Shown: piece after piece, positions 33,993 through 63,057 of the stretch
Numbering within the stretch: the stretch's first letter is position 1
Layout of the letters: the number at the start of each line of letters is the position of its first letter
Position numbers and translations under genes: made by a program
The notes under the pieces: generated by a model
What the model saw: the letters and a program-made list of their open reading frames with translations, nothing else
The model's database searches: none
Told to the model about the DNA's origin: nothing
Source: Polyangiaceae bacterium
GTDB taxonomy: Bacteria; Myxococcota_A; Polyangia; Polyangiales; Polyangiaceae
NCBI GenBank assembly: GCA_016712345.1
Contig: JADJRH010000002.1
Location: 264,466-328,465 of the forward strand
Reading direction: 5' to 3'
DNA: 64,000 nt

Positions 33993-34271
33993 GTTTGCGA
34001 AAGCTCCAATTGCACTCCCCGTACCGAACTCGACGGCTCTTGATTAGTGTGTACACATGCGCCCCCCATGCGGCGTTTGACGCCGCATTTGGGGGGCGAG
34101 GCGCGCAGAATGCGCGCCGCAGGGGGGCATTGTTCGCAGAAGTGAGAATGGGAGGGGAACGCGGTGGTGAAAGTTGTGCAGCCGGTCTGCGCGATTTGCA
34201 CGCTTCGCGCGTTTGATCGTTCGGTGAGTTGACCTTTTGGCGTGGTGCCGATCTTGCGACGTGGGTGCGCC

Positions 34272-43092: not shown

Positions 43093-43350
43093 CCCGCCCT
43101 GCGCACAAGGCCTACACGAAGCGACGAGAACAATCTGGAGAAGGCGACGGCTGTTGAGCGCGGTGTACACATGCGCCCGAAAAAAAAGACGTGCACCTTA
43201 TGGCGTATTGACAACCCGTGTCTTTTCGGATGATTGTGAAAGTGCCCCGATCGCTGTTCAGATCGAAACCCGGCGTGGCTCAAGCGTCACGGCACATCAT
43301 GACCCGGCGCGGGCGTGTCGGCCGGGCGCAGCGGAAAAACACTGGCATCT

Positions 43351-47813: not shown

Positions 47814-49040
47814 TCAACCGCACTCCACTCGAACCGTGGAGATAATGTGTTGGAGGGTTTTCTGTACCACTTCGGTTCGTTCGTGCCGAACAAGGAGGTA
47901 GCCGTCGCCCTCGTACCCCGTGCCTTTGGCTTGTCCAATGGAGGGAAGTTTTGACCCCACAATCAGGTGCCCCACTTCCCGCTCCACCTGTTCAATGCCG
48001 GTGATCGCTCGAATGTTACCTGTACCCTGTCCTCGCAAATAGGCTGCTCCGGCGGCAAATCGGCGCTTCGGAGGGTCCATCTCGCCGTACACCATTACTT
48101 TGGCCCACGCGTAACAGAGGTCTATTTCGTGGGCCAAACCTACCAACGTTGTAAACTGCGCTCCCGGCGGCCTGGCCCCCACTTCAGATATCGCAATGCT
48201 GCCGTCGTTTCGTCGAAACCACTCCATGTGGCTGAGCCCCGTGTCCATACCCAATACGTCCAGCGTTTTATACGCCGCATCCCGAATGTCGTCGTATTTC
48301 GGGTCGTCGATTTCGCGCGGTAAAACAACACTCCACTGAATCCAAGGGTTGCGCAGCACCTCCAGCGGGGTGGGGTGATAGTGGGTAAGCGAATGCCAAA
48401 TGTGCTTTCCACCGATGGTGATTGTTTCAAACGAGTGTTCGTTTCCAATCACCATCTCTTCCACAAGAACCGGTCTATCGGCGCTTGGAGCCGCTTTTGA
48501 AAGCTCGGCTTTCAACTGCGCTGCGTCGTTGACTCGAAACGTTGATTCTGCACCCGCGCCGGCCGGTGGCTTGACGATCAGCGGAAACCCGAGTTCTTTG
48601 GTAGCCTCCCACAGCTCGTATTCTGAGTAAACCGTTTTGTGTTTTGCGCAGGGTATACCGGCCTCACGAAGCAGCGACTTCATCCGTCCTTTGTCGCGAA
48701 AGTTTTTGGCCGTTTCCACACTCATCCCTTCTACCCCGAGGTGTTCTCGCGCTTCGGCGAGCGCTTCTTGAATTTGTTCAACAGCGCCGAAGAGCCTATG
48801 AATCCGGTCTTCTTTCACATAAGCCTGAAGCGCTTTTGCACCGCGCTCGATCTCCGCCGAACTCGCCACGTCTTTAATGGTAAGGTAGGCCGCAACGCCG
48901 CCGAGCAGGCGCCTCGGCAACTTGTCGAACGGTTCGAGCGACAAGATACCCAACTTCATGTCGGGCAGTCGAGAGAGCGCTTCAATGAATCGAATGGCAA
49001 CGTCGGTGAAATAGGGGGCCGTAAAGATCACGAAGGGCAT
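47814..49040 (-). CDS. ATP-grasp domain protein (carboxylate-amine ligase-like)
   Basis: LGFPLIVKPPAGAGAESTFRV, EEMVIGNEHSFETI and SEVGARPPG are typical ATP-grasp B/C subdomain motifs. Confidence 0.6.
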   Translation of the reverse strand: MPFVIFTAPYFTDVAIRFIEALSRLPDMKLGILSLEPFDKLPRRLLGGVAAYLTIKDVASSAEIERGAKALQAYVKEDRIHRLFGAVEQIQEALAEAREHLGVEGMSVETAKNFRDKGRMKSLLREAGIPCAKHKTVYSEYELWEATKELGFPLIVKPPAGAGAESTFRVNDAAQLKAELSKAAPSADRPVLVEEMVIGNEHSFETITIGGKHIWHSLTHYHPTPLEVLRNPWIQWSVVLPREIDDPKYDDIRDAAYKTLDVLGMDTGLSHMEWFRRNDGSIAISEVGARPPGAQFTTLVGLAHEIDLCYAWAKVMVYGEMDPPKRRFAAGAAYLRGQGTGNIRAITGIEQVEREVGHLIVGSKLPSIGQAKGTGYEGDGYLLVRHERTEVVQKTLQHIISTVRVECG

Positions 49041-49130: not shown

Positions 49131-52100
49131 ATGTCATTTGCGGCGATCGGGGTATTGCTCGGCGGGCGCTACCTCTTGGAGCGACGCCTTGCCGAAGGGG
49201 GCATGGGTGCCGTTTGGCGCGCGCGCCACATCAAGCTTGACGTGCCTGTTGTCGTGAAAGTGATGACGCCCGTGCTCGCGTCGTCGTCGGAGGCGCGCAC
49301 TCGGTTTGAACGCGAAGCAAAAGCCGCTGCGCGACTTACAAGTCCGCACGTTGTTGAAGTGCACGACTACGGTGTGGAGGGCGACACGCCCTACATCGTG
49401 ATGGAACACCTTGAAGGCCAGGACTTGGCGATGCGGCTCGCTGCGCGAGGCCATCTGCGGGTGGATGAAACGGCCGAGGTGATTGACCAGATAGCAAAAG
49501 CGCTCGATGTGGCGCACGCAGCCGGCGTCGTTCATCGCGACCTGAAACCGAGTAATGTATTTTTGGCGAAAACGGGGCGCGAAGAAGTTGTCAAGGTGCT
49601 TGACTTCGGTGTTGCAAAACTTCGCTCCGAGCCGGGTATAAGCACGCTGCCGGGTATGGTGATGGGCTCACCGAGCTACATGAGCCCCGAACAGACAAAG
49701 GGAGCAACGGCGCTGGACTATCGAAGCGATTTGTGGTCGCTCGGTGTTGTCGCTTTTGAATGTCTTACCGGGGCCCTGCCGTTTGATCGCGACGACGTGA
49801 CCGATCTGATTATAGCGATCAGTCAGGCACCCGTGCCGTCGGTTACGAGTTTTGCGCCGTGGCTCAATCCTGAACTCAACTCCTTTTTTGTGCGCGCGTT
49901 GTCGCGGCCCGTTGCCACGCGTTTTCAGTCCGCGCTCGAACTTGCGGAGGCATTTGTTGCCGCGGCGGGCCTGCCGGCGCGCGTTCGCTCCACATTTTCC
50001 AGTCAGGACTCCCATTCGGTAGGTGAATCGGCGGGGGCGCGACTGTCACTTTCTACCGGCTCTCTCCACAGCGAAAAAACGGTCGCACTCAGGGCCAAAC
50101 CTTCCGATGACATTTCAACTCTCACCGGTGCACCCAAGTCCAAGTCGAGGTCGGGAGCCGCCCTCGCAAACGTGGGTGAGGTCATCGCCGGCCGTTTTGA
50201 AGTGCTTTCCGCGGCGGGTGAAGGATCCATGGGAGTTGTCTTCCACACGCATGACAAGGTCACGGGGTCACAAGCGGCTCTCAAGTTATTTCGACCGAGC
50301 GTTGTGGACACATCTCGTTTTTTCCAAGAAGCCCACGCTCTGTCAGAATCGCACCATCCCGCGGTGGTGCGGTACGTTGCTCACGGAGTGACAAGCGAAG
50401 GTCAACCTTACCTTGCGATGGAATGGGTAGACGGAATCTCCCTTGCAATGCGACTCAAGCTCGGGCCGCTGGGTGTGACTGAAAGTTTGGTGCTTGCCAT
50501 TCGGCTCGCAGAAGGGTTGGGGGCGGTTCACAGAAATGGGATTGTCCACGGCGATCTGACACCTTCCAATATTCTTCTTTCGTCGGGTAGACTCGAAGAC
50601 GCCAAAATTATCGATTTTGGAATTTCGCATCGGGGCAAAAACAGCCGGTTGAATGTTTCACAACCGCTGCAAGTTACCGGAACACCGGGTTACCTCGCAC
50701 CCGAACAAGCGTTGGCCGGACAAACAACCGACTCGCGGGCCGATGTATTCTCGCTCGGTTGTGTACTCTTTGAGTGCCTTGCGGGGCGTTCACCGTTTGC
50801 GGCCGACAGCGCATTTGCCGCAATTGGAAAGCTCACCGCGGCGCCGGTTCCCCGCCTCTCGGATATCATGCCCACGGCGCCCGCCGGGCTTGACGCCCTC
50901 CTGGGTAGATTGCTCGCCCACAATCGAGAGTCACGACCTGAAAACGGTGCCGATGCTGCCGCGCTCATGGCCGCCGTTCACGATCTCGAAGCGCCGGTGT
51001 CCCGGGGTCGTGAAGGGATGACCCAAGGCGAGCGAAAACTGGTTCCGGTGGTGCTCGTTGTTCCGGCGGCCTCACTGCCAACTCTACCCACTGTGGGGCT
51101 TCAATTGGCAGCGGATGCCGCTCAGGACGATGCAACACTCAACGTTACGACCGACGTTGTCGCGCGGAACGAGCAGCTCACTCCCATTGCGAGGCGCTAC
51201 CAATGCCGGGTTGAAATTGTTCAAGGCGGCGCGTTTGCCCTGATTGGTGAAGGCGCGGGTCTACTGGTAGATCAAGCCACCCAGGCGGCATTGTGCGCCC
51301 TCGCTGTGCACGCGGCTTTCCCCGACTCCGCGGTTTCCGTGGCCACCGGACGAAAGGGAAAACGCGGTGGAGTGCTCGACCGGGCCGCGGCGTGTTTGGT
51401 GCGCGCTTTCGGCGGTGGTGAAGGCGCCCACAACGATTTGCCGCCGGTTCTCGACGACGCTTCTTTTGGTCTTCTCGACGGTAGGTTTGACATTGACCGA
51501 TCTACCCAACATTACCTTTTGAGAGGCCGGCTCCTCCGGGAAGAAGATCAAGGGCGTTTGCTGGGCAAGGTGGTTCCGTGCGCGGGGCGCGAACCCGAAC
51601 TTTCAATCCTTGATACTCTCTACCGTGAATGTTCTGAAGAGTCGACTGCCAAGGTGGTTATTATCAAAGGCCCCGCCGGTGCCGGCAAATCCCGCCTTCG
51701 ACGCGAATTTTTGCGCCGACTTAAAGACAGGGGTGAAGTTTTTATAGAATGGGTAGGTCGAGGCGACGTGATGAACGCCGGTTCCCCATTTGCCATCCTG
51801 TCCAACGCGGTGCACTCCATGTTGGACCTCGCGGGGGGTGAACCCGACGATGTTCGACGCGCTGCGCTGCGCGAAGTCGTGGCTCGTCGTGTACCCGCTG
51901 ATAGGGTAAACAGCGTGACAGCGTTCGTTGGGGAAATGGTGGGTATACCGTTTCCCGACGACAGCGACCCGCAGATTGAAGCGGCTCGTAAAGACGCTCT
52001 TTTGTTGGGCGATCAAAGGCGCCGCGCGTTTGAAGAACTCCTTGCTGCGGAGTGCTCCAAGTCGCCTCTGGTGCTCGTTCTTGAAGACTTGCACCTGTCC

Positions 52101-54080
52101 GATCTACCCACGGTGAAACTCATCGACAGCGCCCTTCGAACGCTCGAAAATCTACCCTTGTTCGTTGTCGCCACAGCGCGCGAGTCGGTGGGAGATTTGT
52201 TTCCCAAGTTATGGCACGAACGGGTGCCTCAAGAAATTCGCGTGGGGCCTCTCTCCGCAAAAGCGAGCGAAAAAATTGTTCGTTCCGTGTTGGGGGCCGC
52301 CGCGGACAAAGACCTTGTGTCAAAGGTTGTTTCACGCGCCGGTGGACATCCGCTCCACTTGGAAGAGATCGTGCGGGCCGTTGCCGAAAGACCCGGCAGC
52401 GAGTTGCCCGACACAGTGCTTGCGGTTGTGGAGGCTCGTCTCGCGGCGCTCGATCCGGCGGCGCGTTTGGTGCTTCGCGCGGCGAGCGTTTTTGGTAGAA
52501 CGTTTTGGCAAGGCGCCGTTACAGAACTCACCTCACTCCGATCTTCCACGGTTGCCGATTGGCTTCGCGACTTGGATGAACACGAATGGATCAAGCGATC
52601 TACCCTATCGCGTTTTGTGGGTGAAACCGAGTTTGTCATTCAACAGGATCTTGTACAGGAAGCTGCGTACGCCATGCTCCATGAGAGCGATCGCGAGTTG
52701 GGTCACAGACTCGCCGCCAACTTTCTTGTGCGCTCGGGCGAGCGTGATCCAACCGTGTTGTCGCGGCATTTTGAGTTGGGAGGTGACTCTGCCCGCGCCG
52801 CGCTCTGGCTTCTGCGGGCAGCGGAACAAGCTCTCGACGGCAACGACTTTGCGGCGGCTGTAACCCTTTCTGCCAAGGCTGCGGCTCTCAGCAACGATCC
52901 CATTCACGGAGGCCGGGCCGCGGCCATCTCGGCAGAGGCGAACTTGCATCGCGGCGAGTTGACAGCCGCGCGAGAACAGGCGTTTTTTGCGATGAAACAC
53001 CTCGCTCCCCCCGAGCCGGAGTATTTTCGTGCCTGCTCTTCGGCGGTGGCTTCAAGTGGAAAACTCGGCGACCTTGAAAGTGTACAGAAAGTCGCGCGGT
53101 CGCTTCTTGAGTTGGACGCGGCAAGCTGTCCACCCATTTCGCTCGCATCGGTGGGTGGAAACGGTATTGTCCAATGTTTTATTCTCGGCGATACTGCCCT
53201 CGGAACAACCTTTCTAGAGTGGTTTGATAAGATCGCCCACCAAGCCGCTCAAACAGAACCTCTCGTTGCCGCTCAACTGGCGCGGGCACGTGGGGCGAAG
53301 GCAGCGTATTCAGGCGATCTATACGGTTCAATAGAGCAGCTGCGAAACGCTGTCATCGCTTCGGACGCCGCCGGGGACATGCGCTCGGCGTGCGCGTTGC
53401 GAAAAACCCTTGGATGGTATCTCGGCGAACTTGGGGCTCTTGAAGAGGCCGAAAAAGCGCTGCGCGAGGCCATTTCCGCAGCTGATAAAATGGGTCTGAC
53501 AAGCCTCGCGCCCCATGCCAAACACGACCTGGGGTCACCGCTGCTTCGCCTGGGTAAACTCGATGAAGTGCGCATCTCTCAAGAAGAAGCCCTGATCGCC
53601 TTTGATTTGCAAGGAGACAAGCGCCTTCAGTCGAGTGCCCACGCGCTTTTGAGCGCCGTTCAGCTTTTGGCAGGCGATCTTGACGCCGCCGAACGTGAGG
53701 CGAATCTGGCCCTTTCATTGGCTCCTTCGGACATGATTCGCTTTACAGCGCTGACGCGCCTCGCCGACGCTCAACGCGCGCGTGGTCACCATGAAGAAGC
53801 TATTGCCACAGCAGATATTGCCCTCAAGGTTGCCGATGAAACGGGCAACATCGAAGAGTGTTTGGTGCTTTGTTACCTCGTTCGCGCTGAAAGTCTCATT
53901 CAGCTTGGACAACGTAACGAGGCAGAATCTACCCTGCGTCGCGCCCGAGTAGAAATCGAGCGCCGCGCCGCGGGCATCAGTGATCTCACCCTTCGCGGTT
54001 CGTTCGTTGCCCGCATCCCTGAAAATGCCCGCGTCTTGGAACTTTGTAACACGCAGTTCCAAGATCAGGGGCATTCGTGA
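49131..54080 (+). CDS. tandem Ser/Thr kinase - (pseudo)kinase - AAA(STAND) - TPR signalling protein
   Basis: Kinase 1: GGMGAVWRA, VVKV, HRDLKPSN, DFGVAK, SPSYMSPE. Kinase-like 2: GEGSMGVVF, ALKLF, HGDLTPSN (HRD->HGD, K->T), DFGIS, TPGYLAPE. A possible degenerate cyclase-like linker is followed by P-loop IIKGPAGAGKSRL and a long TPR/helical C-terminus. Confidence 0.85.
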   Translation: MSFAAIGVLLGGRYLLERRLAEGGMGAVWRARHIKLDVPVVVKVMTPVLASSSEARTRFEREAKAAARLTSPHVVEVHDYGVEGDTPYIVMEHLEGQDLAMRLAARGHLRVDETAEVIDQIAKALDVAHAAGVVHRDLKPSNVFLAKTGREEVVKVLDFGVAKLRSEPGISTLPGMVMGSPSYMSPEQTKGATALDYRSDLWSLGVVAFECLTGALPFDRDDVTDLIIAISQAPVPSVTSFAPWLNPELNSFFVRALSRPVATRFQSALELAEAFVAAAGLPARVRSTFSSQDSHSVGESAGARLSLSTGSLHSEKTVALRAKPSDDISTLTGAPKSKSRSGAALANVGEVIAGRFEVLSAAGEGSMGVVFHTHDKVTGSQAALKLFRPSVVDTSRFFQEAHALSESHHPAVVRYVAHGVTSEGQPYLAMEWVDGISLAMRLKLGPLGVTESLVLAIRLAEGLGAVHRNGIVHGDLTPSNILLSSGRLEDAKIIDFGISHRGKNSRLNVSQPLQVTGTPGYLAPEQALAGQTTDSRADVFSLGCVLFECLAGRSPFAADSAFAAIGKLTAAPVPRLSDIMPTAPAGLDALLGRLLAHNRESRPENGADAAALMAAVHDLEAPVSRGREGMTQGERKLVPVVLVVPAASLPTLPTVGLQLAADAAQDDATLNVTTDVVARNEQLTPIARRYQCRVEIVQGGAFALIGEGAGLLVDQATQAALCALAVHAAFPDSAVSVATGRKGKRGGVLDRAAACLVRAFGGGEGAHNDLPPVLDDASFGLLDGRFDIDRSTQHYLLRGRLLREEDQGRLLGKVVPCAGREPELSILDTLYRECSEESTAKVVIIKGPAGAGKSRLRREFLRRLKDRGEVFIEWVGRGDVMNAGSPFAILSNAVHSMLDLAGGEPDDVRRAALREVVARRVPADRVNSVTAFVGEMVGIPFPDDSDPQIEAARKDALLLGDQRRRAFEELLAAECSKSPLVLVLEDLHLSDLPTVKLIDSALRTLENLPLFVVATARESVGDLFPKLWHERVPQEIRVGPLSAKASEKIVRSVLGAAADKDLVSKVVSRAGGHPLHLEEIVRAVAERPGSELPDTVLAVVEARLAALDPAARLVLRAASVFGRTFWQGAVTELTSLRSSTVADWLRDLDEHEWIKRSTLSRFVGETEFVIQQDLVQEAAYAMLHESDRELGHRLAANFLVRSGERDPTVLSRHFELGGDSARAALWLLRAAEQALDGNDFAAAVTLSAKAAALSNDPIHGGRAAAISAEANLHRGELTAAREQAFFAMKHLAPPEPEYFRACSSAVASSGKLGDLESVQKVARSLLELDAASCPPISLASVGGNGIVQCFILGDTALGTTFLEWFDKIAHQAAQTEPLVAAQLARARGAKAAYSGDLYGSIEQLRNAVIASDAAGDMRSACALRKTLGWYLGELGALEEAEKALREAISAADKMGLTSLAPHAKHDLGSPLLRLGKLDEVRISQEEALIAFDLQGDKRLQSSAHALLSAVQLLAGDLDAAEREANLALSLAPSDMIRFTALTRLADAQRARGHHEEAIATADIALKVADETGNIEECLVLCYLVRAESLIQLGQRNEAESTLRRARVEIERRAAGISDLTLRGSFVARIPENARVLELCNTQFQDQGHS

Positions 54081-55168
54081 TATTCGATGAACGCATGACG
54101 GAAGTGGACCTCTTCCTTGCCGAACGACGCAGGCGATCCGATGAACGGCTTGCGGCTGTAAAAAACGCTCTACTCCGTGAAATTCCCGAGGCAGAAAGGG
54201 TTGAATTGCTCGGGCATCACACCTGCATTTACGCCGTCGGCTCCGGTGGGCGCGGAGAACTTTCTCGTTACAGCGATCTTGACCTTTTCCTCGTCAAGCA
54301 GGGTTCTCCCCGCAGGGTAGATGAAATTCGCCTGCAAAGTGCGGTGATTCGTGCTCTTCGTTCTGAAGGTTTTGAAGACCCGTCCAACGACGCGAGCTTT
54401 CTCAAGTTGCATGCCGCCGAACACTTAATTGAGCGGTTGGGGGAGCCCAGTGACGACACCGAAAACACGTTTACCGTGCGCATGCTCCTGCTTCTCGAAA
54501 GTCGACCGCTGCTCGGTGACCTTGCGCACGAAAGGCTCGCAAAAAAAGCTCTCGACGCATATTGGAAAAATGTGGAGGCGCACCGGGAAGATTATCTACC
54601 CATTGTTTTCTTCAACGACATCATTCGCTACTGGCGCATGATGCTCCTGAATTACGAATCGAAAACGGCCGACAAACAGCGCAGAGTTGAACGGATGTTT
54701 GCCGCCGGCCCCTCGCCTGAACGCACCCGTGCCGAGTTGGACCTGGAGGCCGACAAAAACCTACGCAGTTATAAACTGCGATTTAGCCGGTGTCTTCTTT
54801 GTTATTCGAGCGTTGCATATTTAATGGCTGAAGCGTACCGCACCCAAACCGAACAGAAGCGCGCTCACGTGACGCGTGAAGTGGTAGATCACATGGTCAT
54901 GTTGCCACCCATGGATCGATTACGCGAGGCAATTGACAAGGCGAAAACCGCGCCGGGCGTTACAGAAATCGGGCGGGAGTTAACGGCTCTCTACGCTCAA
55001 TTTCTCCGCGATACAGATCGCTCCAAAAACGAACTTCACGCAATCTTTGTGAGTCGGCGCGACAGAAAGCCGCTTTTTAACGCCGCCAAAGAGTTTGGTG
55101 AAAAGATGTATGATTTTATTATGGCCCTCGGGCACAATAATCCAATGTTTCGCTATCTGGTGGTATGA
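54077..55168 (+). CDS. GlnD/DUF294-type nucleotidyltransferase with substrate-binding helical domain
   Basis: IYAVGSGGRGELSRYSDLDLFLV matches the GlnD-like pol-beta NTase motif (G[GS]xGRGEL...SD[IL]DL). About 240 aa of helical domain follows. The start overlaps the kinase stop by 4 nt. Confidence 0.55.
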   Translation: MIFDERMTEVDLFLAERRRRSDERLAAVKNALLREIPEAERVELLGHHTCIYAVGSGGRGELSRYSDLDLFLVKQGSPRRVDEIRLQSAVIRALRSEGFEDPSNDASFLKLHAAEHLIERLGEPSDDTENTFTVRMLLLLESRPLLGDLAHERLAKKALDAYWKNVEAHREDYLPIVFFNDIIRYWRMMLLNYESKTADKQRRVERMFAAGPSPERTRAELDLEADKNLRSYKLRFSRCLLCYSSVAYLMAEAYRTQTEQKRAHVTREVVDHMVMLPPMDRLREAIDKAKTAPGVTEIGRELTALYAQFLRDTDRSKNELHAIFVSRRDRKPLFNAAKEFGEKMYDFIMALGHNNPMFRYLVV

Positions 55169-55220
55169 TTGATAATGTCGTTCCGGTGTGTTTGATCAGC
55201 TTGGCAGCAAGGAGACAATC

Positions 55221-55907
55221 ATGAACAAGCGCTTGTGGATGCTTGGTTTGGCGCTCATTCTACCCGCCTGTGACGGGGGTGGTGACGGCTCGGGTGGAAG
55301 CGCCGGTTCGGCGGGCTCCGCCGGTTCGGCGGGGGGTGAAACCACGGGAGCGGCGGGGACCGCCGGGTCTGGAACGGGAGGCAACTCTACTACCGGCTCC
55401 GGGGGCAGCACAGGCAGCACCGCGCCGGTGGGCGATTGTTCCGTGGCCATGCCCTGCACAACGGCGGGAGAGTCGTGCGTTTTTCCGGCCAACTCGTGCG
55501 GTTCAGATGCAACCGGCACGTGCAAAGAAATCACCTGTGACGGTACCGAAGAAAACCATGGTCCGATTTGCCTCTGCGATGGTGAGGTATTTGAGTTTAA
55601 CGCCGAGTGTCTGGTGTGGGATCAGAGTAAACCCATTGCCCCGGCCGACAATTGTGCCAACGGAACCTTCTCGTGCGGTACAGAAACATGCACCTACAAT
55701 ACGCAGTTTTGTATTGTGACCTACGCGGGGCCCGAGGGGTCAACTCCGTCGTATGAGTGCCGCAACGTTGTAGATGCTCAAACCACTTGCCTTTACGGCA
55801 TTTCAGATTGCGGATGTATCAACCTGACGGACCTTGGCTGCCCTGACACAAGCTGCTGTTATATGGATGGTTTCTACCAAGAAACCGTCACCATTTATCT
55901 ACCTTAG
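55221..55907 (+). CDS. Gly/Ser-linker, Cys-rich lipoprotein
   Basis: Lipobox LILPACDG. Linker GSAGSAGSAGSAGG. About 24 Cys in the C-terminal 150 aa. Confidence 0.45.
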   Translation: MNKRLWMLGLALILPACDGGGDGSGGSAGSAGSAGSAGGETTGAAGTAGSGTGGNSTTGSGGSTGSTAPVGDCSVAMPCTTAGESCVFPANSCGSDATGTCKEITCDGTEENHGPICLCDGEVFEFNAECLVWDQSKPIAPADNCANGTFSCGTETCTYNTQFCIVTYAGPEGSTPSYECRNVVDAQTTCLYGISDCGCINLTDLGCPDTSCCYMDGFYQETVTIYLP

Positions 55908-57061
55908 CGATAATTGCCGTCCGAAGGCGACTTGACTACCAATGCCTGTTTTGACAGGCCCAAGTCTTCAAGGCCGCCGCTCAACAGGCCCGCGCTGCCC
56001 GGTGGTCCGGGGAGCCATAAGGCGAACCCCCGCGCTCCAGCGTTTACTTCCCCACCCAAAGTCTGCTGATCCCACGTTCCCGTGTTCAGGTCCATTTGCC
56101 AAAGATCCCCCAACATGCTTGCACCCGTGGGTGAGTCGGACCCAAACCCCATGACAAGCGAAGTCATGTCCGCTCTAAAAGCTACCCATGGCAAACGTCG
56201 TCCCGACGGTTTAAGACCCGGTTGAATTTTGACTTCTGTCCACGTTTCTGTTGCAGGGTCAAAACTCCAAACGTCGGCTAGAAAATTGGGCGAACCGTTG
56301 AGTGGACCAAGCCCACCTAAAAGCCAGAGCGGGCCACCCTCCACCGGGTAGCGAAGGACACCGTCATAACGCGCCTGTGGCCCTTTTGCCGTCAGTTCGG
56401 TGAAGCTTCCATCGGTGGGTAGATAGCGCCACATCACATCTGAAAACCCGGTTTGCGCCGAGGCGCCGCCAAAAATGTACCCTTCGTCGCGATCGGCTAA
56501 AAAGACGGCATGACACCCAACGGGGTGTTCAGCGGCGCCGGGCGATCCAAGGGCCGTCACTTCGTTGGTGGTCAGGTTTACCTTTTCAACATTGGTGGTT
56601 TCGTTGAAATCTGTTCCTCGACCACCGATGATAATCAACTCATTTCGGTTGGTATCTACCATGGCACAGCCGCAGTATCGATTTGAAATCGGAGCAGTGA
56701 CAGCGGTTGCCTTTACCCCGTCCGCGGTTTGCTCAACGCGAACCAGATTGGCTGTTACAGGGCCCGCCGTTCCACCGACGCCCCCCACCAAATAAGCCAC
56801 TTTCCCCGATTCTTGCGCAACAATCCCACCCCATACGGGGGGTAGATTTTCAACACTGACCAGGTCAAACGACCACGGCCCCGGCTCTTCGGTCTGGGTG
56901 GTGGTACCACCCCCGGAACCACCCGTGCCGCCCGTTGTTGATGACGTTTCACCCCCGGCACCTCCCGTTGAGGTTTCCGTTGAAGAACCGTCGCAGGCCT
57001 GAACCAGCAGGCCCAGGGCTAGGGTTAGGCCCAAGCAAACATTCGATCGCATTCGATTCAT
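55904..57061 (-). CDS. Kelch/beta-propeller repeat lipoprotein
   Basis: Lipobox LLVQACDG. Gly/Thr linker. Repeated Kelch-like blades (YLVGG..., IIIGG..., YIFGG..., WLLGG..., the last followed by a GG pair). Confidence 0.5.
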   Translation of the reverse strand: MNRMRSNVCLGLTLALGLLVQACDGSSTETSTGGAGGETSSTTGGTGGSGGGTTTQTEEPGPWSFDLVSVENLPPVWGGIVAQESGKVAYLVGGVGGTAGPVTANLVRVEQTADGVKATAVTAPISNRYCGCAMVDTNRNELIIIGGRGTDFNETTNVEKVNLTTNEVTALGSPGAAEHPVGCHAVFLADRDEGYIFGGASAQTGFSDVMWRYLPTDGSFTELTAKGPQARYDGVLRYPVEGGPLWLLGGLGPLNGSPNFLADVWSFDPATETWTEVKIQPGLKPSGRRLPWVAFRADMTSLVMGFGSDSPTGASMLGDLWQMDLNTGTWDQQTLGGEVNAGARGFALWLPGPPGSAGLLSGGLEDLGLSKQALVVKSPSDGNYR

Positions 57062-57277
57062 GAGCGAGCCGCCCTCAGCAATCCGCGTGCCTCCAGAAAG
57101 GGCGACACATTTCCGGCGTTCTAAAAATGCGAATGCGAGGCTCATAAATGACAAGTGCAATCTGACAGGGCGTCAACAACTTAACGCGCGGGCGAGCACT
57201 TCGTCCTGTGCGCGCCGTCCGGTCAACTGCGCGGGTGCGTTTCGCGTCGAAATAGGATAACAACAGTCCAACTCCCT

Positions 57278-58624
57278 ATGCGCTTGTCCACCGTTCTCAC
57301 TCAGTTTCTCGTGTGCATCCCCATCATCGGTGCCGCGGGGTGTTCCTTAGCGGAGCCGATCTTAATTCCAATGTGTCAAGAAACGCCGGAGGCGCGGAGC
57401 GAGCAGAAACAACCTTCCAAGCCGCTGCCCGCGCACCCTGACTACGAGCAGCTTCGCGCGCTCAGAAACTATTATTCTGTTCAATCGGTTGAAGAGTACG
57501 CTCACCACTTTTCGGTTTGGTTCAGCTGTGTTGAGTCCAGTACGGCGCACTACACGGTTTCGCCCTCGGGTGAAGTTCGCAAAGTCGGCGGCGCGTGGGG
57601 AGGTCTCGCCACGACAGATAGAAAGGTTGACAGTGTTCCGCCGGAGCAGGCTCAAAACGCCGCTCTTGTTCGAACCGAGCACGATCGAGCGTATCTCCAC
57701 GAGTCAAAACCGATTGTTGTGTACATGGGTTCTTACCGCCGGGTTTGGGTAAATGAAGTGGTGCCGTGGCACGGTCCTGGAAGTCCATACAAACGGATGA
57801 TGAACCACATGGAAGTAGCATTTCGAGCCAATGCCGATCTTACCTCGTTCGACGGGTATGAAACGTTCTCCGGCGGCACAACAAAGCTGTGTTGGGAAGA
57901 CCTCTCTGTCCGAGACTGTTCCAACCCCCATTGGGTAGATTTCACTCCGTCCAAGTCACCCACTTCACTTCTTGTCGCGCTTGCCTCCAATAATGCGGCC
58001 GCGCCGGTTTTGTCTGAAGAACGGCAGAAGTTCAACGAAGTGGTGTTGGCCGCCGCTCGCAAAAAAGTGGCAGGTGAGCCGGGCACCCCGCTCGCCGATA
58101 TTCTAACGCATCAAGAAGCGACCTTACTCCCCACCGGCTACAATCCCGAATTTGTCATTGGGTTTAGAATGCACGCCCACCCTAAAGAAGGTGCAAACCA
58201 AAAAAACGTGGAGTCACAGTTTTCAAAAACCCTTCTTTTGAGCGACATTTTTAAGGGTTCAATCAAAACAACATTGGAAGGTCAAGTGGCCGGTCAACCC
58301 GTCAGCGCCGACGTGACCATCTCGGTTGACCCGAAACCGCCCCAACCTCAAGGCGAGTTTGAAACATCGCTCCAGTTTGTGTACACAATTCGTGCCGTGG
58401 GCAGTTCGCGCTCGGCCGAGTTAAAGGTAACCGCCAAAGTGATTGTCGACGGTGATCGTGTGGCTCTCCTGTGGAGAAATCTACCCAAAGAGGTTGAGCA
58501 GGCTCCACATTTGCCGCCGCTGACTCAAACGTTTGCCGGTACCGGAATGTATAAAGAAGTGGAAAGCCACTTTTTTCTGACAAGCGACACCATGCCCAAA
58601 CCGTGGTATCCGCCGAGCAGGTAG
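57278..58624 (+). CDS. hypothetical lipoprotein
   Basis: Lipobox IIGAAGCS. No recognisable domain. Confidence 0.35.
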   Translation: MRLSTVLTQFLVCIPIIGAAGCSLAEPILIPMCQETPEARSEQKQPSKPLPAHPDYEQLRALRNYYSVQSVEEYAHHFSVWFSCVESSTAHYTVSPSGEVRKVGGAWGGLATTDRKVDSVPPEQAQNAALVRTEHDRAYLHESKPIVVYMGSYRRVWVNEVVPWHGPGSPYKRMMNHMEVAFRANADLTSFDGYETFSGGTTKLCWEDLSVRDCSNPHWVDFTPSKSPTSLLVALASNNAAAPVLSEERQKFNEVVLAAARKKVAGEPGTPLADILTHQEATLLPTGYNPEFVIGFRMHAHPKEGANQKNVESQFSKTLLLSDIFKGSIKTTLEGQVAGQPVSADVTISVDPKPPQPQGEFETSLQFVYTIRAVGSSRSAELKVTAKVIVDGDRVALLWRNLPKEVEQAPHLPPLTQTFAGTGMYKEVESHFFLTSDTMPKPWYPPSR

Positions 58625-58632
58625 GCCGCGGC

Positions 58633-59112
58633 TCAGGTTTTTTGCCGGCCAGACTCGGCTTCATAAAACGCTTCTGAGTAGCGTTCTGCAGCCGCCGCGT
58701 CTCGTGCAAAAACGCGCGCAAAATGGCGCTCAGCGCGGAGATAGTCGGCGGTGGAAAGGCCTCGGGCTGCCACCGCCTTTTCCACTCCTACCACCGAGAT
58801 GGCAAAACGTAGGCGCGCCCATTCTTCAACTGTCAGGTTTGGAACCGGAGCAAGCGCGTCCTGGGCCTTGGCAAACGCTGCCGCAAATGTTTCTGCGACG
58901 TTTGGTTCGCCGCCGGCCAACGCTTCTTGTGCCATTTGTTCGAGGTAGTGGGTTTCAGCCCGCTTCCACTCGTCGCGCGTCAGCGAGTGCGCGGCGAGCA
59001 CATTGGCCAACGTGGCTCCGGCCTCGGCCAGGGCCGCTTTTATAGCAGCCACTTGTTCAAGCGTCATCTCCGGGGCGTGTGGCTCCTGTGCCATATCTAT
59101 GCGCCGAACCAT
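58633..59112 (-). CDS. hypothetical helical protein
   Basis: ORF only. Divergent from the DUF2169 gene. Confidence 0.3.
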   Translation of the reverse strand: MVRRIDMAQEPHAPEMTLEQVAAIKAALAEAGATLANVLAAHSLTRDEWKRAETHYLEQMAQEALAGGEPNVAETFAAAFAKAQDALAPVPNLTVEEWARLRFAISVVGVEKAVAARGLSTADYLRAERHFARVFARDAAAAERYSEAFYEAESGRQKT

Positions 59113-59157
59113 AGTTTTGAGATTTTATCAGGTCAACAAGTATGCGACACTGCCTGT

Positions 59158-60144
59158 ATGGGTTTTCTCAATGCGACCCCGTACGTCGCTCTCGACTTCG
59201 CTGTCACAGACCATGAAGGTCGGGCGGTTGTGGTCGCCATTGTCAAAGCCACCTTTGACATTCAACAAGGGAAGGCGACGCTCGCAGAAGAACAAATTCC
59301 GCTTCGAGCAAACGATGTCCCCCTGAATGTAGAAAACCCAATGGGAAGTATCCAGTTTGCCTCCGACCTTTGTCATATCAAACACGGCGCCGATGTGTTG
59401 GTTGTCGGGGAGGCGGTTTCGCGTTCTGCCGTCAAGTCGCTCGATGTTTCGGTAAAAGTGGCGTCCAAAGCACTCACGGTGCGCGTTTTCGGAGATAGGC
59501 AGTTTGTTCAGGGCGCTTCCGATATTGTGGTGGGCGCGGCTCTGCCGTTTGAGCGTATGCCCATTGTGTATGAGCGGGCCTACGGGGGTATGACAGAAGA
59601 CCTGACGGAGATCGAAGAGCGCAATCCTGCGGGCGTCGGCGTTGCCAAGAAAAAAAAGGATCTGGTTGGGCGGCCGGCGCCGCAGGTAGAGCACCCATCG
59701 TTGCCTCACAAAACAGCCAATGACAAACATCCGCCCATCGGTCTCGGTCCGATCATGACTCATTGGCTGCCGCGTCGGTCGTACGCCGGAACATTCGATG
59801 AAACGTGGAAAACCACGCGCATGCCCATGATGCCGGCAGACTACAACATCAAATACAATAACTGCGCTCACCCAAGCCTGGTGTTCGACAATCCTCTGGC
59901 GCCCGGTGACCCCGTTTCTGTGCTTGGTATGCACGAAGATGGGTTGCTCGCATTTGACATCCCCAACTGGAAGGCGGTTGCCCGCGCCCGGTTTGAACAC
60001 AAAGGTAAGGTTACCATTCCTCTCGGCGTGGATACATTGGTGCTTCACCCCAATGACAAGCGGTTTGAAATGGTGGGTAGGTACGCTTTCCCCGTGGGTA
60101 GGGGAGGTGACGTGCTCCGTGAACTTTCGGTGGACTTTGCGTAG
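59158..60144 (+). CDS. DUF2169 domain protein (type VI secretion effector-adaptor family)
   Basis: N-terminus NATPYVALDFAVTDHEGRAVVVAIVKATFDI matches my recollection of the DUF2169 N-terminal consensus (..TPF.a..f...d..g....vvvvKaTy.l). Size about 330 aa. I cannot verify the Pfam hit without a search. Confidence 0.5.
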   Translation: MGFLNATPYVALDFAVTDHEGRAVVVAIVKATFDIQQGKATLAEEQIPLRANDVPLNVENPMGSIQFASDLCHIKHGADVLVVGEAVSRSAVKSLDVSVKVASKALTVRVFGDRQFVQGASDIVVGAALPFERMPIVYERAYGGMTEDLTEIEERNPAGVGVAKKKKDLVGRPAPQVEHPSLPHKTANDKHPPIGLGPIMTHWLPRRSYAGTFDETWKTTRMPMMPADYNIKYNNCAHPSLVFDNPLAPGDPVSVLGMHEDGLLAFDIPNWKAVARARFEHKGKVTIPLGVDTLVLHPNDKRFEMVGRYAFPVGRGGDVLRELSVDFA

Positions 60145-60190
60145 TTTTGCGTGGTTTGGCCGGCGTTTGCGCGGGTAAAGCAGCCGAGTG

Positions 60191-62008
60191 TTATCGCAGT
60201 TTATGATCCCATGAACCTACCCGGTATGACGCCAATGCGCGTTTGGCCGCACCCGTCAGCGGGGCAAGGGCAGGGGTAAGATCCGTGAGCCAGGCTGCCA
60301 AATCAACCTTCTCGGTCACTCCACAGCGCGACCGCAACTCTGAAAGACGCAGCCCCATCTCGCGTCGCGTCAGCTCTCCCGACAGAAGCTCTTCCACAAC
60401 CACCGCGGGACTCCACGGTCGACCCCGCCGATACCGCGCCGATGGGTCGAGCTTCGCGTTTGCCAGCGCCGATTTCCAAGCTGATTTGTCGAGCCGCTCG
60501 TCGGAGTCGACCATGGGGCCAAACAGCGTTTCAAGCGCGTTTGCGGCGTCGTCGGCCAAATCTTCGTCACCCAATTGAGCCGTCAGATAAGACCAGGCAC
60601 CCGGATGTCCAAATCGAGCCAGGGTAGACAAGGTGGCGGCCGACTTTGGAACCCGCGCAAGCAAGTTGGCAAGAAGTGTGTTGTCCTCACTGTTTCCCGC
60701 ACGAACAAGCACTTCCCCGGCGAGCTGCGAAAGCCTGGATGTTTCAGGTGCGCCGCTTTTAAGCGCGCGGTACGGATCTTCCAAACCCCACGCGAGCAGC
60801 GTGGACGCCGCCGTACAGGCCACCGTTGCATCCGGGAAGGTGAGCCATTTGCGTACGACGGGGAAAAGCGGTTCGGCAGCCGTTACATCAAGCCGGCGGG
60901 CCGCCCATAGAGCTGCGCGCAGAACGGTAAGATCGGGATCAAACAAAAAGGACCGGAGCTGGTCAATGGGTAGAGCCTGTTTTCTACCCAGGAAGTAGAC
61001 CGCCACGGCCCTGCAAGGTGAGTGGGGATGTTGAAGCAGTCGCCGCGAGAATTCGTCGAGTTCTGGGTGGGGAGAACAGGCCAGGGCCTCAAAAGCCTTG
61101 TGCGCGGCGAGGGCATCCGTCGGTGCCAACCGTAACAGTCCGTATTCTACCGCGTCAAGAATATCCGAACCCGAAAAACTCCCCAACGCGAATACCGCGG
61201 CCCAGGTGTTCCAAGGGTTGGGCGACGAAAGTGAACGGCCCCAGGCGCCCACAAGAATGGGGACAATCGCACCGCCGATGCTGACCATTGCGTCCACGTG
61301 GGCGAGGATGCGCGCTTCAACCTCCGAACGAGCGGCAAAGGGCCTTTCTGCCCGGTGCCTTCCCAACATGGAAAGGCGGTCGAGCGCGAGCACTACAATC
61401 TCTTCATGGAGCAAATGCTCATCGATGGCGCCTCCTTTGCCATCGATCGCGGTTACCACCGGAGGCGGCCCTTTGGGTAGATCGGGATCGGGTTGACCTC
61501 GCCCCAAGGCAGCCGGAGCCGGTTTAAAATCGTCAAATGGGGACGGCAGATCGTCATTTTCGGGCGCAGCGGTTACAGTTTCGAGTGGTGTTGTTGTTGC
61601 AGCAGAAGAGACGCTCGCGGGTAGAAAAACGTCTCGGACGGGCGACTTCAAAACAACCCGTTCAGGTTCGGCCACAAGCAGCGTTGGGATTGTGGGCGTT
61701 GGGAGCGTTCCAACCGAGGGGTGGAGAAGCGCTTGGCACCGTAGGCTTTCACCGTAGGCCCGCGCCACCGTTTGCAGCGTTTCAAGGTCGAGCGCATGGT
61801 TACCTGCCAACACCGTGGCGCGCTGTGCGAGGGTGGAAACCGCGCGCGTTACAGCATCCAGATTGGGTGGGCCTCCCAAGCCTTCCACTGTGTCGAGCAA
61901 AGCGCCCAGCGGGGTTTGGATGGATGTTTTCCAGGTGCCATCTGGCATGGAAGCAATGCGGTCAAAGGCGGCTCGCAGGTGTTTTGCGAGGTCTTTCGCG
62001 GAGGTCAT
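60191..62008 (-). CDS. large hypothetical protein (possible T6SS cargo)
   Basis: Start chosen at MTSAKDL, giving a 4-nt overlap with the upstream gene. Helical, HEAT-like C-terminal half. No motif recognised. Confidence 0.35.
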   Translation of the reverse strand: MTSAKDLAKHLRAAFDRIASMPDGTWKTSIQTPLGALLDTVEGLGGPPNLDAVTRAVSTLAQRATVLAGNHALDLETLQTVARAYGESLRCQALLHPSVGTLPTPTIPTLLVAEPERVVLKSPVRDVFLPASVSSAATTTPLETVTAAPENDDLPSPFDDFKPAPAALGRGQPDPDLPKGPPPVVTAIDGKGGAIDEHLLHEEIVVLALDRLSMLGRHRAERPFAARSEVEARILAHVDAMVSIGGAIVPILVGAWGRSLSSPNPWNTWAAVFALGSFSGSDILDAVEYGLLRLAPTDALAAHKAFEALACSPHPELDEFSRRLLQHPHSPCRAVAVYFLGRKQALPIDQLRSFLFDPDLTVLRAALWAARRLDVTAAEPLFPVVRKWLTFPDATVACTAASTLLAWGLEDPYRALKSGAPETSRLSQLAGEVLVRAGNSEDNTLLANLLARVPKSAATLSTLARFGHPGAWSYLTAQLGDEDLADDAANALETLFGPMVDSDERLDKSAWKSALANAKLDPSARYRRGRPWSPAVVVEELLSGELTRREMGLRLSELRSRCGVTEKVDLAAWLTDLTPALAPLTGAAKRALASYRVGSWDHKLR

Positions 62009-63057
62009 GAGGCACCCAACCTTACCCATGCTCCGCCGCGGAGGCCGTCGGGAGAAATCGCCCATGAAAAGTGGGCTTTGGTGTCGGCCGGAGTCACCGG
62101 CAGATGATGCCGCAACGTGGAAACGCCCCACACGACATTGGCAACACCCGCCGCGGCGCCCATTCTACCCACGTAATCTTCCGCACCTGAAAAGGTGCAT
62201 GCCGGGCCAAACATTTCAGCGTTTCGGGCCGAAGCAAAGTTCCACTCCTGACTCCGAAAATCATCCACCATACTCTGTCCAAATACGGCGCCCACCGCCT
62301 CGCCCTGGGCTGTCTCTCGAAATACCTTTCCCAGCGCCGTGCCGTCGGGCGGCTCGTCGTTGTCGTCGGCCGAGACGCTCTTCGACACAGCGCTTTTCAC
62401 GATGGAGGCTATCACCTGACTGCCGGCGCGGCGCGCTCCGGGTGGAGTCATCAGCGCCAACGCGGCGGCACCTTCGGAAAAGGGGAGAGGGTCGCGCGCC
62501 CAAGGACTTGGGGGGTGAGTGAGATGGTAGGCGAGAACATTCAGGTCGACAAACGAGTCAACAGCGACCACGCAGAGAATCGAACTCGCGCTTTTTACAG
62601 CAAGTGACTCTGCATCGCGGAGGGTAGAAAAAACACCCGCCTCCCCATGCGTTTTTGAAGCGAGTGAAGCGCCGCAGTCCGACGCCAGGGCGCGAGCGAG
62701 ATCATCGGCCGACCGCGCGCTGAAAAGGTCCGACGGAGCGCGTGTACACACCGCGAGCGAAAGTGTGAGATCGGTAACATCGGGTTTTTCACCTTCGCGC
62801 GGCGTGAGAAATCCAAGTTGTCGAAGTGGGTCAAGCGCGTCTTTTACCGCGCGTTTTGCCATGAGAAAAAGCCGCTCCGAAAGAGGAACCTTGGCTCCAA
62901 TGTGGCGGCAATATCGAACATCTACCCGTTTGTCTTGGGCGTCGACAAAAGGGGAAGGTGACGGTGCCGGTAGGCCCGCGGCGCTGAAGAACACGTGCTG
63001 CTGCGGAGTGAAACCCACCGGCGAAACAAGCCCGGTGCCCACGATCGCAAGTGTCAT
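62005..63057 (-). CDS. hypothetical protein with beta-ketoacyl-synthase-like N-terminus
   Basis: MTLAIVGTGLVSPVGFT resembles the KAS/thiolase-fold N-terminus, but no Cys-His-His catalytic constellation is evident. 4-nt overlaps with both neighbours. Confidence 0.3.
   Translation of the reverse strand: MTLAIVGTGLVSPVGFTPQQHVFFSAAGLPAPSPSPFVDAQDKRVDVRYCRHIGAKVPLSERLFLMAKRAVKDALDPLRQLGFLTPREGEKPDVTDLTLSLAVCTRAPSDLFSARSADDLARALASDCGASLASKTHGEAGVFSTLRDAESLAVKSASSILCVVAVDSFVDLNVLAYHLTHPPSPWARDPLPFSEGAAALALMTPPGARRAGSQVIASIVKSAVSKSVSADDNDEPPDGTALGKVFRETAQGEAVGAVFGQSMVDDFRSQEWNFASARNAEMFGPACTFSGAEDYVGRMGAAAGVANVVWGVSTLRHHLPVTPADTKAHFSWAISPDGLRGGAWVRLGAS

Follow-up and report, generated by a model that had tools for sequence, protein, structure and literature searches.

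The heptamer TCTACCC/GGGTAGA is best read as a lineage-specific, hyper-abundant iterated word, fixed genome-wide and belonging with cyanobacterial HIP1 and the USS/DUS uptake words. It was analysed in one 64 kb window, the whole stretch of DNA considered here, from a single MAG of an uncultured Polyangiaceae myxobacterium. In the branch leading to this genome, unrelated positions have converged on the word by synonymous and some non-synonymous substitutions, and the convergence extends to every stop-free reading frame, to both strands equally, and to coding as well as non-coding DNA. At this level of class, namely a repeated word of duplex DNA whose fixation was driven by a bias specific to its sequence, we assign the reading a probability of about 0.8. 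The word resembles the signature words of cyanobacteria and of naturally transformable pathogens, and not RNA or chromosome-polarity signals.

Abundance, anatomy and reading frames

The window contains 55 copies of TCTACCC/GGGTAGA where dinucleotide shuffles of the 64 kb predict 2.2 (~25-fold), and 26 copies of the octamer ATCTACCC/GGGTAGAT against 0.46 expected (56-fold; Table 1). The heptamer density is 860 per Mb, or ~1 per 1.2 kb. A sequence-only reading of this DNA had already reported over-representation and in fact understated it, its expectations of ~8 and ~2 being zero-order values (8.4 and 1.8). The 20 positions listed at that time are all real, to within 8 nt, and six octamers are added here (7766, 17733, 27168, 43894, 45770 and 47033). 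An unbiased scan of all NN-TAC-NN words returns TCTACCC and TGTACAC as discrete outliers.

The fuller motif is W-TCTACCC-A, with information confined to the 7-mer and positions -1 and +1; beyond these, the window copies have no conserved flanks. A REP/MITE dispersed repeat is rejected, since the copies share neither extended flanks nor a hairpin and flank information content is ~0. One-off variants of TCTACCC are enriched 2-8-fold at positions 1, 2 and 7 and not at positions 3-5; for both TCTACCC and the palindrome GTGTACAC, enrichment of variants is limited to the outer positions, and the S-TAC core is kept strictly. Non-coding DNA, 7.5% of the window, holds 3 of the 55 copies.

Within genes, the copies are distributed as 9, 4 and 19 per sense frame and 9 and 7 per antisense frame, and encode many different peptides. 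Relative to codon and synonymous shuffles, each of the five stop-free frames is enriched (2- to 60-fold), with values of 8- to 20-fold in the antisense frames. The word occupies 48 of the 252 positions at which the protein sequence permits it (4.6 expected). CTA-CCC encodes 24 of 125 Leu-Pro dipeptides, where 1.5 would be expected, and this context accounts for 38% of the CTA codons in total. The earlier proposal of a DNA-level signal, as opposed to a single-frame protein motif, is supported by the five enriched frames.

Table 1. Positions of TCTACCC, of the octamer ATCTACCC that contains it, and of the palindrome GTGTACAC in the 64 kb window
Word	Position	Strand	Context
ATCTACCC	3706..3713	+	sense, ORF 2851-3966 (DUF444); sole relative-shared site, conserved Ile-Tyr-Pro
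TCTACCC	5460..5466	-	antisense, SpoVR ORF 3971-5530; relatives: AGGTCGA or AGGTGGA
TCTACCC	6167..6173	-	between rough ORF calls
ATCTACCC	7766..7773	+	antisense, ORF 6933-8792
ATCTACCC	8097..8104	-	sense, ORF 6933-8792
ATCTACCC	14077..14084	+	sense, ORF 12861-15668
TCTACCC	16411..16417	+	sense, ORF 15704-17335; Gly-Leu-Pro kept, word via three synonymous changes vs L001
TCTACCC	16840..16846	+	sense, ORF 15704-17335
TCTACCC	17428..17434	+	antisense, ORF 17325-18773
ATCTACCC	17733..17740	+	antisense, ORF 17325-18773
ATCTACCC	25063..25070	+	sense, ORF 24933-25937
TCTACCC	25282..25288	+	sense, ORF 24933-25937
TCTACCC	25425..25431	+	sense, ORF 24933-25937; 5 nt then GGTAGA (inverted partial copy)
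ATCTACCC	26801..26808	-	between convergent ORFs; GGGTAG-n5-CTACCC with 26812
TCTACCC	27058..27064	-	sense, ORF 26812-27318
ATCTACCC	27168..27175	-	sense, ORF 26812-27318
TCTACCC	27415..27421	-	between ORFs
TCTACCC	27940..27946	-	sense, ORF 27662-29206
ATCTACCC	28278..28285	-	sense, ORF 27662-29206
TCTACCC	29681..29687	-	sense, ORF 29276-29854
TCTACCC	30570..30576	+	antisense, ORF 30048-31427
TCTACCC	34784..34790	-	antisense, ORF 34242-35453
TCTACCC	38882..38888	-	antisense, ORF 38674-40161
TCTACCC	39000..39006	+	sense, ORF 38674-40161
TCTACCC	41068..41074	+	sense, ORF 40216-41565
ATCTACCC	43894..43901	+	sense, ORF 43315-46341
TCTACCC	44911..44917	+	sense, ORF 43315-46341
TCTACCC	45006..45012	-	antisense, ORF 43315-46341
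ATCTACCC	45770..45777	+	sense, ORF 43315-46341
ATCTACCC	47033..47040	+	antisense, ORF 46346-47527; CTACCC-n5-GGGTAG inverted pair
TCTACCC	48730..48736	+	antisense, ORF 47814-49040
TCTACCC	50425..50431	-	antisense, kinase ORF 49131-54080
TCTACCC	50585..50591	-	antisense, kinase ORF 49131-54080
ATCTACCC	50903..50910	-	antisense, kinase ORF 49131-54080
TCTACCC	51083..51089	+	sense, kinase ORF 49131-54080
ATCTACCC	51500..51507	+	sense, kinase ORF 49131-54080
ATCTACCC	52102..52109	+	sense, kinase ORF 49131-54080
ATCTACCC	52150..52157	+	sense, kinase ORF 49131-54080
ATCTACCC	52598..52605	+	sense, kinase ORF 49131-54080
ATCTACCC	53927..53934	+	sense, kinase ORF 49131-54080
ATCTACCC	54315..54322	-	antisense, ORF 54077-55168
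ATCTACCC	54594..54601	+	sense, ORF 54077-55168
TCTACCC	55259..55265	+	sense, ORF 55188-55907
ATCTACCC	56417..56424	-	sense, Kelch ORF 55904-57160
ATCTACCC	56840..56847	-	sense, Kelch ORF 55904-57160
ATCTACCC	57933..57940	-	antisense, ORF 57278-58624
ATCTACCC	58479..58486	+	sense, ORF 57278-58624
TCTACCC	60622..60628	-	sense, ORF 60191-62131
TCTACCC	60968..60974	-	sense, ORF 60191-62131; inverted pair with 60983 (GGGTAGA-n8-TCTACCC)
TCTACCC	60983..60989	+	antisense, ORF 60191-62131; inverted pair with 60968
ATCTACCC	61475..61482	-	sense, ORF 60191-62131
TCTACCC	61619..61625	-	sense, ORF 60191-62131
TCTACCC	62164..62170	+	gene call uncertain; antisense if ORF 62005-63057(-) real
TCTACCC	62622..62628	-	gene call uncertain
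ATCTACCC	62920..62927	+	gene call uncertain
GTGTACAC (form TGTGTACACA)	991..998	.	
GTGTACAC	2481..2488	.	L001 counterpart GCGCGCAC
GTGTACAC	6676..6683	.	L001 counterpart GTGCACGC
GTGTACAC	11530..11537	.	L001 counterpart GTGCGCGC
GTGTACAC	15331..15338	.	
GTGTACAC (form TGTGTACACA)	21657..21664	.	
GTGTACAC	24985..24992	.	
GTGTACAC	25891..25898	.	
GTGTACAC (form TGTGTACACA)	27045..27052	.	
GTGTACAC	31344..31351	.	
GTGTACAC (form TGTGTACACA)	34049..34056	.	intergenic
GTGTACAC (form TGTGTACACA)	35557..35564	.	
GTGTACAC	39571..39578	.	
GTGTACAC	43163..43170	.	intergenic
GTGTACAC (form TGTGTACACA)	58379..58386	.	
GTGTACAC	62742..62749	.	

Relatives, a sister word and a companion palindrome

Enrichment of TCTACCC is found in 0 of 80-84 related Polyangiaceae loci, the six nearest relatives included; SpoVR identity to the nearest of these is 85-88%. 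At orthologous positions the relatives are 1-5 bases away from the word, transversions included, and the differences sometimes change amino acids. Where this is testable, the central TA of the word falls in codons for conserved amino acids: all relatives share the Tyr at 3707, and a Val is kept at 5460. The TCTACCC lineage has undergone a 10-point GC drop. A second low-GC Polyangiaceae lineage (L027 and L034) carries a different dispersed heptamer, GACAAAC, in all six frames. The sites of this word, which is analogous to TCTACCC and not the same, are conserved between the two MAGs in 9 of 12 cases against a background of 28%.

The TCTACCC genome has a second hyper-abundant word, the palindrome GTGTACAC, with 16 sites in the 64 kb window. 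Several 6-bp palindromes are purged from the same DNA: CTCGAG and GAGCTC are absent (14 and 13 sites expected), TCCGGA occurs once (19 expected) and GACGTC twice (21 expected). This extreme purge is a footprint of restriction-modification.

Comparison with HIP1 and a possible mechanism

The word is probably recognised by a protein that acts on DNA sequence-specifically and whose gene lies outside the window, and its abundance would then derive from a fixation bias favouring it; methyltransferase, nickase and competence genes are absent from the 64 kb. Our tentative preference, held at somewhat less than even odds, is for a HIP1-like version in which a ratchet tied to DNA modification or repair, or selection acting on the modified site, has multiplied the word. 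We prefer it because the same genome has the hyper-abundant palindrome, because of the restriction-modification footprint, and because one-off variants sit at outer positions, as reported for HIP1. Published HIP words range from 500-2500 per Mb with 15-300-fold excess (PMC4390886, PMC5861425), and both the density and the enrichment of TCTACCC fall within these ranges. Like HIP1 (GCGATCGC) and the alternate cyanobacterial HIP words (6-8 bp), it is short, occurs in coding and non-coding DNA and in all frames, is replaced by other words in other lineages, and is unevenly dense along the chromosome; its companion is palindromic and thus of the HIP type. It differs in being asymmetric, in residing in a myxobacterium, in having no cognate methyltransferase in the 64 kb window, and in lacking the GC dinucleotide that Elhai's model requires. 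Being non-palindromic and without this dinucleotide, it does not allow the G-meC repair model of Elhai to be applied literally.

The excess of CCWGG attributed to Dcm/Vsr in E. coli is comparable in that word frequency is shaped by sequence-specific repair and not by coding needs. That effect is, however, <2-fold and comes with clear depletion of the T-neighbour, whereas TCTACCC is 25-fold enriched and no neighbouring word that might be the repair substrate is clearly depleted; the relatives lack TCTGCCC at orthologous sites.

Alternative readings

The main alternative is a DNA-uptake or recombination signal, in which a competence receptor prefers TCTACCC and repeated uptake and recombination within the species spreads it. 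We regard this as unlikely, and less probable than the HIP1-like version. Haemophilus USS (AAGTGCGGT core) and Neisseria DUS (ATGCCGTCTGAA) have similar density, equal orientations, occurrence in all frames and a codon-imposed asymmetry within genes (PMC2346458). TCTACCC shares with them its asymmetric form, a spacing of ~1 per kb, equally frequent orientations, presence in several frames, and the codon-imposed orientation bias in genes. As with uptake words, its sites arose through point substitutions, some of which changed the amino acid at a permissive position, and related lineages carry different words in the manner of dialects. Against this reading, the core spans just 7-9 bp with no extended consensus, compared with 9-12 bp or more plus flanks in USS and DUS. 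Inverted pairs are not in excess in the window (3 vs 1.5 expected, p = 0.2), and there is no intergenic or terminator enrichment. Further, the word is common to none of the sampled relatives, and two unrelated hyper-abundant words in one genome are atypical for uptake systems.

Direct selection on a functional chromosomal site, be it a recombination hotspot of the Chi type, a polar KOPS/AIMS-like word or a sequence bound by a nucleoid-associated protein, is distinctly less probable again. The word is an over-represented, G-rich 7-8-mer, as are known Chi sites (GCTGGTGG). Also in favour, GGGTAG fits GGGNAG, and GGGTAGAT agrees with the E. coli KOPS consensus GGGNAGGG over its first six positions. 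Over-representation of Chi is typically few-fold, however, and is exceeded by the 25-fold enrichment seen here; the word is also far denser than KOPS, and its spacing is random to clustered and not regular (CV 1.31). Polarity, moreover, is lacking: counted by absolute strand and not by direction of replication, the copies are split 30 plus to 25 minus (3:3, 8:7, 6:3 and 13:12 in successive 16-kb quarters), which excludes a skew of 75% (p = 0.0008). With the strands balanced, the word is therefore not KOPS-, AIMS- or Chi-like, and the KOPS/AIMS-like signal suggested by the sequence-only reading finds no support. Conservation of the sister word GACAAAC beyond background is compatible with selection, and the uneven density at the 10-20 kb scale is reminiscent of HIP1 periodicity, which has been attributed to nucleoid structure (PMC5861425).

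An artefact is very improbable, whether through systematic miscalls in long reads where a motif is methylated (GGGTAGA called in place of GGGCAGA, for instance) or through an effect of codons or of a recurring peptide. The source contig of 738 kb suggests a long-read assembly, and TCTGCCC is scarce among one-off variants (2 vs 8.5 expected). However, the central TA encodes the conserved Tyr and Val, the 1-5 substitutions needed from orthologous sequence include transversions, and CTG-CCC would still be ~3-fold enriched if A were reverted to G. The analogous GACAAAC is present in two independent MAGs. A repeated peptide motif is rejected, as the word lies in five frames on both strands and encodes many different peptides.

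An RNA motif carried by transcripts in the sense orientation, the reading preferred earlier, is contradicted and retains next to no probability. The sense excess on which it was based holds up in the counts, with 34 copies in sense orientation, 16-18 in antisense and 3-5 between ORFs, such that the sense strand holds ~67-68% of genic copies, but synonymous-codon shuffles alone give 69%. The bias is what codon constraints predict, since the TAG of GGG-TAG-A terminates one of the antisense frames. The word is realised at 22% of permitted sense positions and 15% of antisense ones, which is not significant (Fisher p 0.15); the enrichment of the antisense frames and the palindromic nature of the companion word also argue against a motif of this type.

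Equally little speaks for a compositionally distinct, horizontally acquired block in the last 13 kb, likewise contradicted here. The 50.5-63 kb region, 19.5% of the window, contains 14 of the 26 octamers (54%) and 23 of the 55 heptamers (42%), with a heptamer density ~2.2-fold higher. This clustering, noted earlier, is modest though significant (binomial p ~1e-4, scan-statistic p 0.002-0.003), but falls short of the two thirds then given, and the genes do not differ significantly from one another (chi-square p 0.33). The region has a GC content of 57.6%, indistinguishable from other 12.5-kb segments, and its motif-masked tetranucleotide distance of 0.107 lies inside their range (0.095-0.120). 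Enrichment of TCTACCC extends through all parts of the window and is not confined to this region.

Enrichment and duplex-level behaviour of TCTACCC

In the 64-kb window, the heptamer TCTACCC/GGGTAGA is present in 55 copies and its octamer form ATCTACCC/GGGTAGAT in 26, as compared with 2.2 and 0.46 copies expected from dinucleotide-preserving shuffles (maximum of 4 octamers per shuffle). The expected figures of the earlier, sequence-only reading derive from zero-order expectations (8.4 heptamers and 1.8 octamers); every position that it listed is correct within a few bases, and it overlooked six octamers. In an alignment of the 55 sites, information is confined to the heptamer and the base on either side of it, with A or T (W) in 80% of copies at -1 and A favoured at +1. 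Beyond these two positions the flanks are uninformative, so that TCTACCC does not belong to a dispersed repeat. Among the 256 words of the form NN-TAC-NN, TCTACCC (25-fold) and TGTACAC (15.5-fold) are outliers, all others being enriched at most 8-fold. For both words, variants with a single change are enriched if that change affects the outer positions and not if it affects S-TAC, the core of the word.

The word is enriched in each third of the window, including outside 50.5-63 kb, and between-gene heterogeneity within the window is not significant. The excess previously noted at 50.5-63 kb is real (scan-statistic p 0.002-0.003), but this stretch holds 54% of the octamers and 42% of the heptamers rather than two thirds of the copies. 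Spacing is random to clustered (CV 1.31), density shows no significant correlation with GC3 (rho = -0.30, p = 0.08), and three of the 55 copies are intergenic, in proportion to the non-coding DNA (7.5% of the window). The copies are split 30:25 between the two strands and evenly so within each 16-kb quarter. Inverted pairs are not in significant excess in the window (3 vs 1.5 expected).

Assigned by rough ORF calls, sense frames 0, 1 and 2 hold 9, 4 and 19 copies and two of the antisense frames 9 and 7, while the third antisense frame, in which the word would read GGG-TAG-A and introduce a stop codon, has none. Every occupied frame is 2- to 60-fold above codon-shuffle and synonymous-shuffle nulls. 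Of 252 positions compatible with the word at the peptide level, 48 have it (4.6 expected), and the rates realised in sense (22%) and antisense (15%) do not differ significantly (Fisher p 0.15). Leu-Pro dipeptides are written CTA-CCC in 24 of 125 cases (19%; 1.5 expected), a context that holds 38% of all codons of the rare type CTA. The sense-strand excess that had suggested a strand-specific signal does exist (approximately 67%), but the synonymous-shuffle null already yields 69%. The bias thus reflects coding constraints imposed on a word of duplex DNA; TCTACCC is neither a protein nor an RNA signal.

Lineage specificity and creation of sites by substitution

Neither TCTACCC nor a companion palindrome, GTGTACAC, is enriched in any of 80 related loci or in the six nearest relatives (L001, L009 and L081-L084). 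The SpoVR protein assigns the window to the Polyangiaceae (Myxococcota). It is 85-88% identical to the SpoVR of these relatives; in a search of 5.8 billion proteins, an identical copy is encoded on a 738-kb contig of an NCBI MAG, and the next-closest SpoVR is 86% identical. GC content is 57% in the window vs 66-70% in the nearest relatives, and codon usage is shifted to T-ending codons (CTT 23%, GTT 28%), with TTG at 22% as well. The fall in GC on the branch of the window is large and recent.

At orthologous positions, one of seven TCTACCC sites is common to the relatives, and it encodes a conserved Ile-Tyr-Pro; at the other six, the relatives differ by 1-5 bases. The sites were created by substitution, in some cases through synonymous changes alone (e.g. 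16411 and 7767), in others with a change of amino acid (e.g. 14078, 8097 and 5460). These differences represent convergence on TCTACCC within one lineage. An origin by deamination (GGGCAGA to GGGTAGA) was rejected: TCTGCCC is depleted, yet it is absent from the orthologous sites of the relatives and in too short supply, and the word could not form without transversions.

Several 6-bp palindromes are missing or depleted in the window (observed/expected): CTCGAG 0/14, GAGCTC 0/13, TCCGGA 1/19, GACGTC 2/21, CTGCAG 2/15 and GAATTC 5/22. In the high-GC relatives, both CTCGAG and GAGCTC rank with the commonest and most over-represented words, and the depletion looks like the footprint of a lineage-specific restriction-modification system. 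The companion palindrome was the second outlier of the unbiased k-mer scan, with 16 sites in the window vs approximately 1 expected; it is extended to TGTGTACACA at 6 of these and is carried by 9 of 14 protein-permitted coding positions. Enrichment of GTAC-centred palindromes as a family-wide trait accounts for a baseline only (every relative shows a 2-3-fold excess of GTAC and CGTACG), TGTACA and GTGTACAC being the only window-specific members. The densities of GTGTACAC and TCTACCC are uncorrelated in the window (rho = -0.05, not significant). The half-word GTACAC is sparse precisely at the densest stretch of TCTACCC (48-64 kb).

Relation to known iterated words and candidate drivers

Iterated short words are rare. 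To our knowledge, good documentation exists only for HIP1 of cyanobacteria and for the USS and DUS of two naturally transformable families, the Pasteurellaceae and Neisseriaceae, and the literature searched describes such words in no other group. Even after decades, neither the origin nor the function of HIP1 is settled. The window data fit the class of hyper-abundant iterated words, and we therefore favour, with a probability of about 0.8, the class-level reading that TCTACCC is an iterated duplex word recognised by a protein and under genome-wide fixation bias. As to the driver that we infer behind such a bias, the leading, though tentative, candidate is HIP-like, in that a modification- or repair-linked process would fix the word. 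HIP1 occurs in 15-300-fold excess at 500-2500 copies per Mb and in all frames, has outer-position variants and lineage-specific alternate words, is conserved between genomes and varies in density at the 10-90 kb scale (PMC4390886, PMC5861425). These properties match the present data well, conservation between genomes being seen for the analogous word GACAAAC (below); in contrast to HIP1, TCTACCC is asymmetric and without the GC dinucleotide required by Elhai's model.

It is also conceivable, if rather doubtful, that uptake or recombination drive spreads the word. TCTACCC resembles USS and DUS (PMC2346458) in its asymmetry, its orientation neutrality, its density of approximately 1 per kb and its orientation bias within genes, but these uptake words have a longer consensus and terminator-associated inverted pairs, neither of which was found for TCTACCC. 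No methyltransferase, nuclease or competence genes are present in the 64-kb window. That TCTACCC is a directly selected chromosomal site is improbable; the KOPS/AIMS-like polarity once proposed for it does not hold, as a Chi-like skew of 75% is rejected (p = 0.0008), and TCTACCC is not a polarity signal. An RNA signal, horizontally acquired DNA and an artefact are each very improbable: the sense share is that of the null, the motif-masked tetranucleotide signature and GC content of the supposedly foreign 50.5-63 kb match those of other 12.5-kb segments, and methylation-induced base-calling errors are rejected on the basis of conserved Tyr/Val codons, multi-base differences and residual enrichment once the base is reverted.

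Searches of the literature for the exact words returned primers and unrelated matches only, with no paper found to mention them, and the papers searched describe neither uptake sequences nor iterated words for the Myxococcota. The present case is asymmetric, orientation-neutral, 25-fold enriched, myxobacterial and missing from the nearest relatives. Comparison of matched genomes, some carrying the word and others lacking it, could help to find the responsible enzyme, either an uptake receptor or a methyltransferase that acts with a repair partner. The word skews codon choice strongly, and for its lineage it provides a sharp marker for binning and taxonomy.

Analogous words and gene content

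The same k-mer scan, run on all related loci, found one true analogue, GACAAAC/GTTTGTC, in two independent low-GC Polyangium-like MAGs (L027 and L034). In L027, GACAAAC occurs 27 times in 15.5 kb vs 2.7 expected, dispersed over both strands and all six frames and with no conserved flanks among the L027 copies. Between the two MAGs, which share 82% nucleotide identity, nine of 12 sites are kept vs a background of 28% for arbitrary heptamers. TCTACCC and this different word, conserved in a sister lineage, show that such words can arise quickly and repeatedly. A more speculative proposal, which we consider unlikely as a whole, is that low-GC Polyangiaceae lineages have repeatedly evolved their own asymmetric self-words (TCTACCC; GACAAAC) for uptake or recombination or for recognition of self vs non-self, alongside a large fall in GC and the purging of restriction sites. 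If so, recurrent word turnover would be a natural system for studying the birth of such words. TATCGA/TCGATA in a Polyangiaceae MAG of 54.7% GC (L033; 34 copies vs 9 expected, dispersed, both strands) may represent a weaker instance of the phenomenon. Other candidates were discarded: a tandem protein repeat with a 321-nt period explains GTACTAC and TCGTTCA in L022, a Cys-rich protein repeat explains TGCARCA in L023, and GCCCCTAC in L067 belongs to clustered REP-like inverted repeats.

Positions of words, repeats and genes in the window and in related Polyangiaceae loci
Feature	Locus	Position	Strand	Remarks
GTGTACAC sites	window	991, 2481, 6676, 11530, 15331, 21657, 24985, 25891, 27045, 31344, 34049, 35557, 39571, 43163, 58379, 62742		
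CxxCxxCC-domain protein gene	window	1024-1806	-	between DUF4388/PatA_N response-regulator gene and phosphonate-binding protein gene
Purine-catabolism cluster	window	26812-33024	-	ureidoglycolate lyase; allantoicase-OHCU decarboxylase fusion; amidohydrolase; urate oxidase N-terminal domain-cytochrome c fusion
Kinase gene and following gene	window	49131-55168		first protein 1649 aa: two Ser/Thr kinase domains, AAA_16, TPR repeats
Uncharacterised ORF	window	57278-58624		no Pfam match
DUF2169 protein	window	58927-60144		flanked by the two uncharacterised ORFs
Uncharacterised ORF	window	62005-63057		no Pfam match
GACAAAC/GTTTGTC	L027	1-15509		
GACAAAC/GTTTGTC	L034	1-4654		
TATCGA/TCGATA	L033	1-21557		
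Long tandem array	L022	~8000-15400		period ~321 nt; repeated protein domain; explains top k-mers there
GCCCCTAC clusters	L067	7239-7294, 10049-10161, 19333-19365		three intergenic spots; look like REP-type palindromic elements

The large kinase protein matches PADLOC PD-T4-6 kinase models, and the gene that follows has a match to the PADLOC candidate PDC-M70A and a weak nucleotidyltransferase match; the two may form a defence-type gene pair. DUF2169 is a family that we take to be associated with type VI secretion. The purine-catabolism cluster is one of the word-rich stretches. Both the window and L081-L083 have the CxxCxxCC gene, whereas L009 has only a 32-bp gap and no such gene is called in L084; the relatives are thus polymorphic for a small insertion or deletion.
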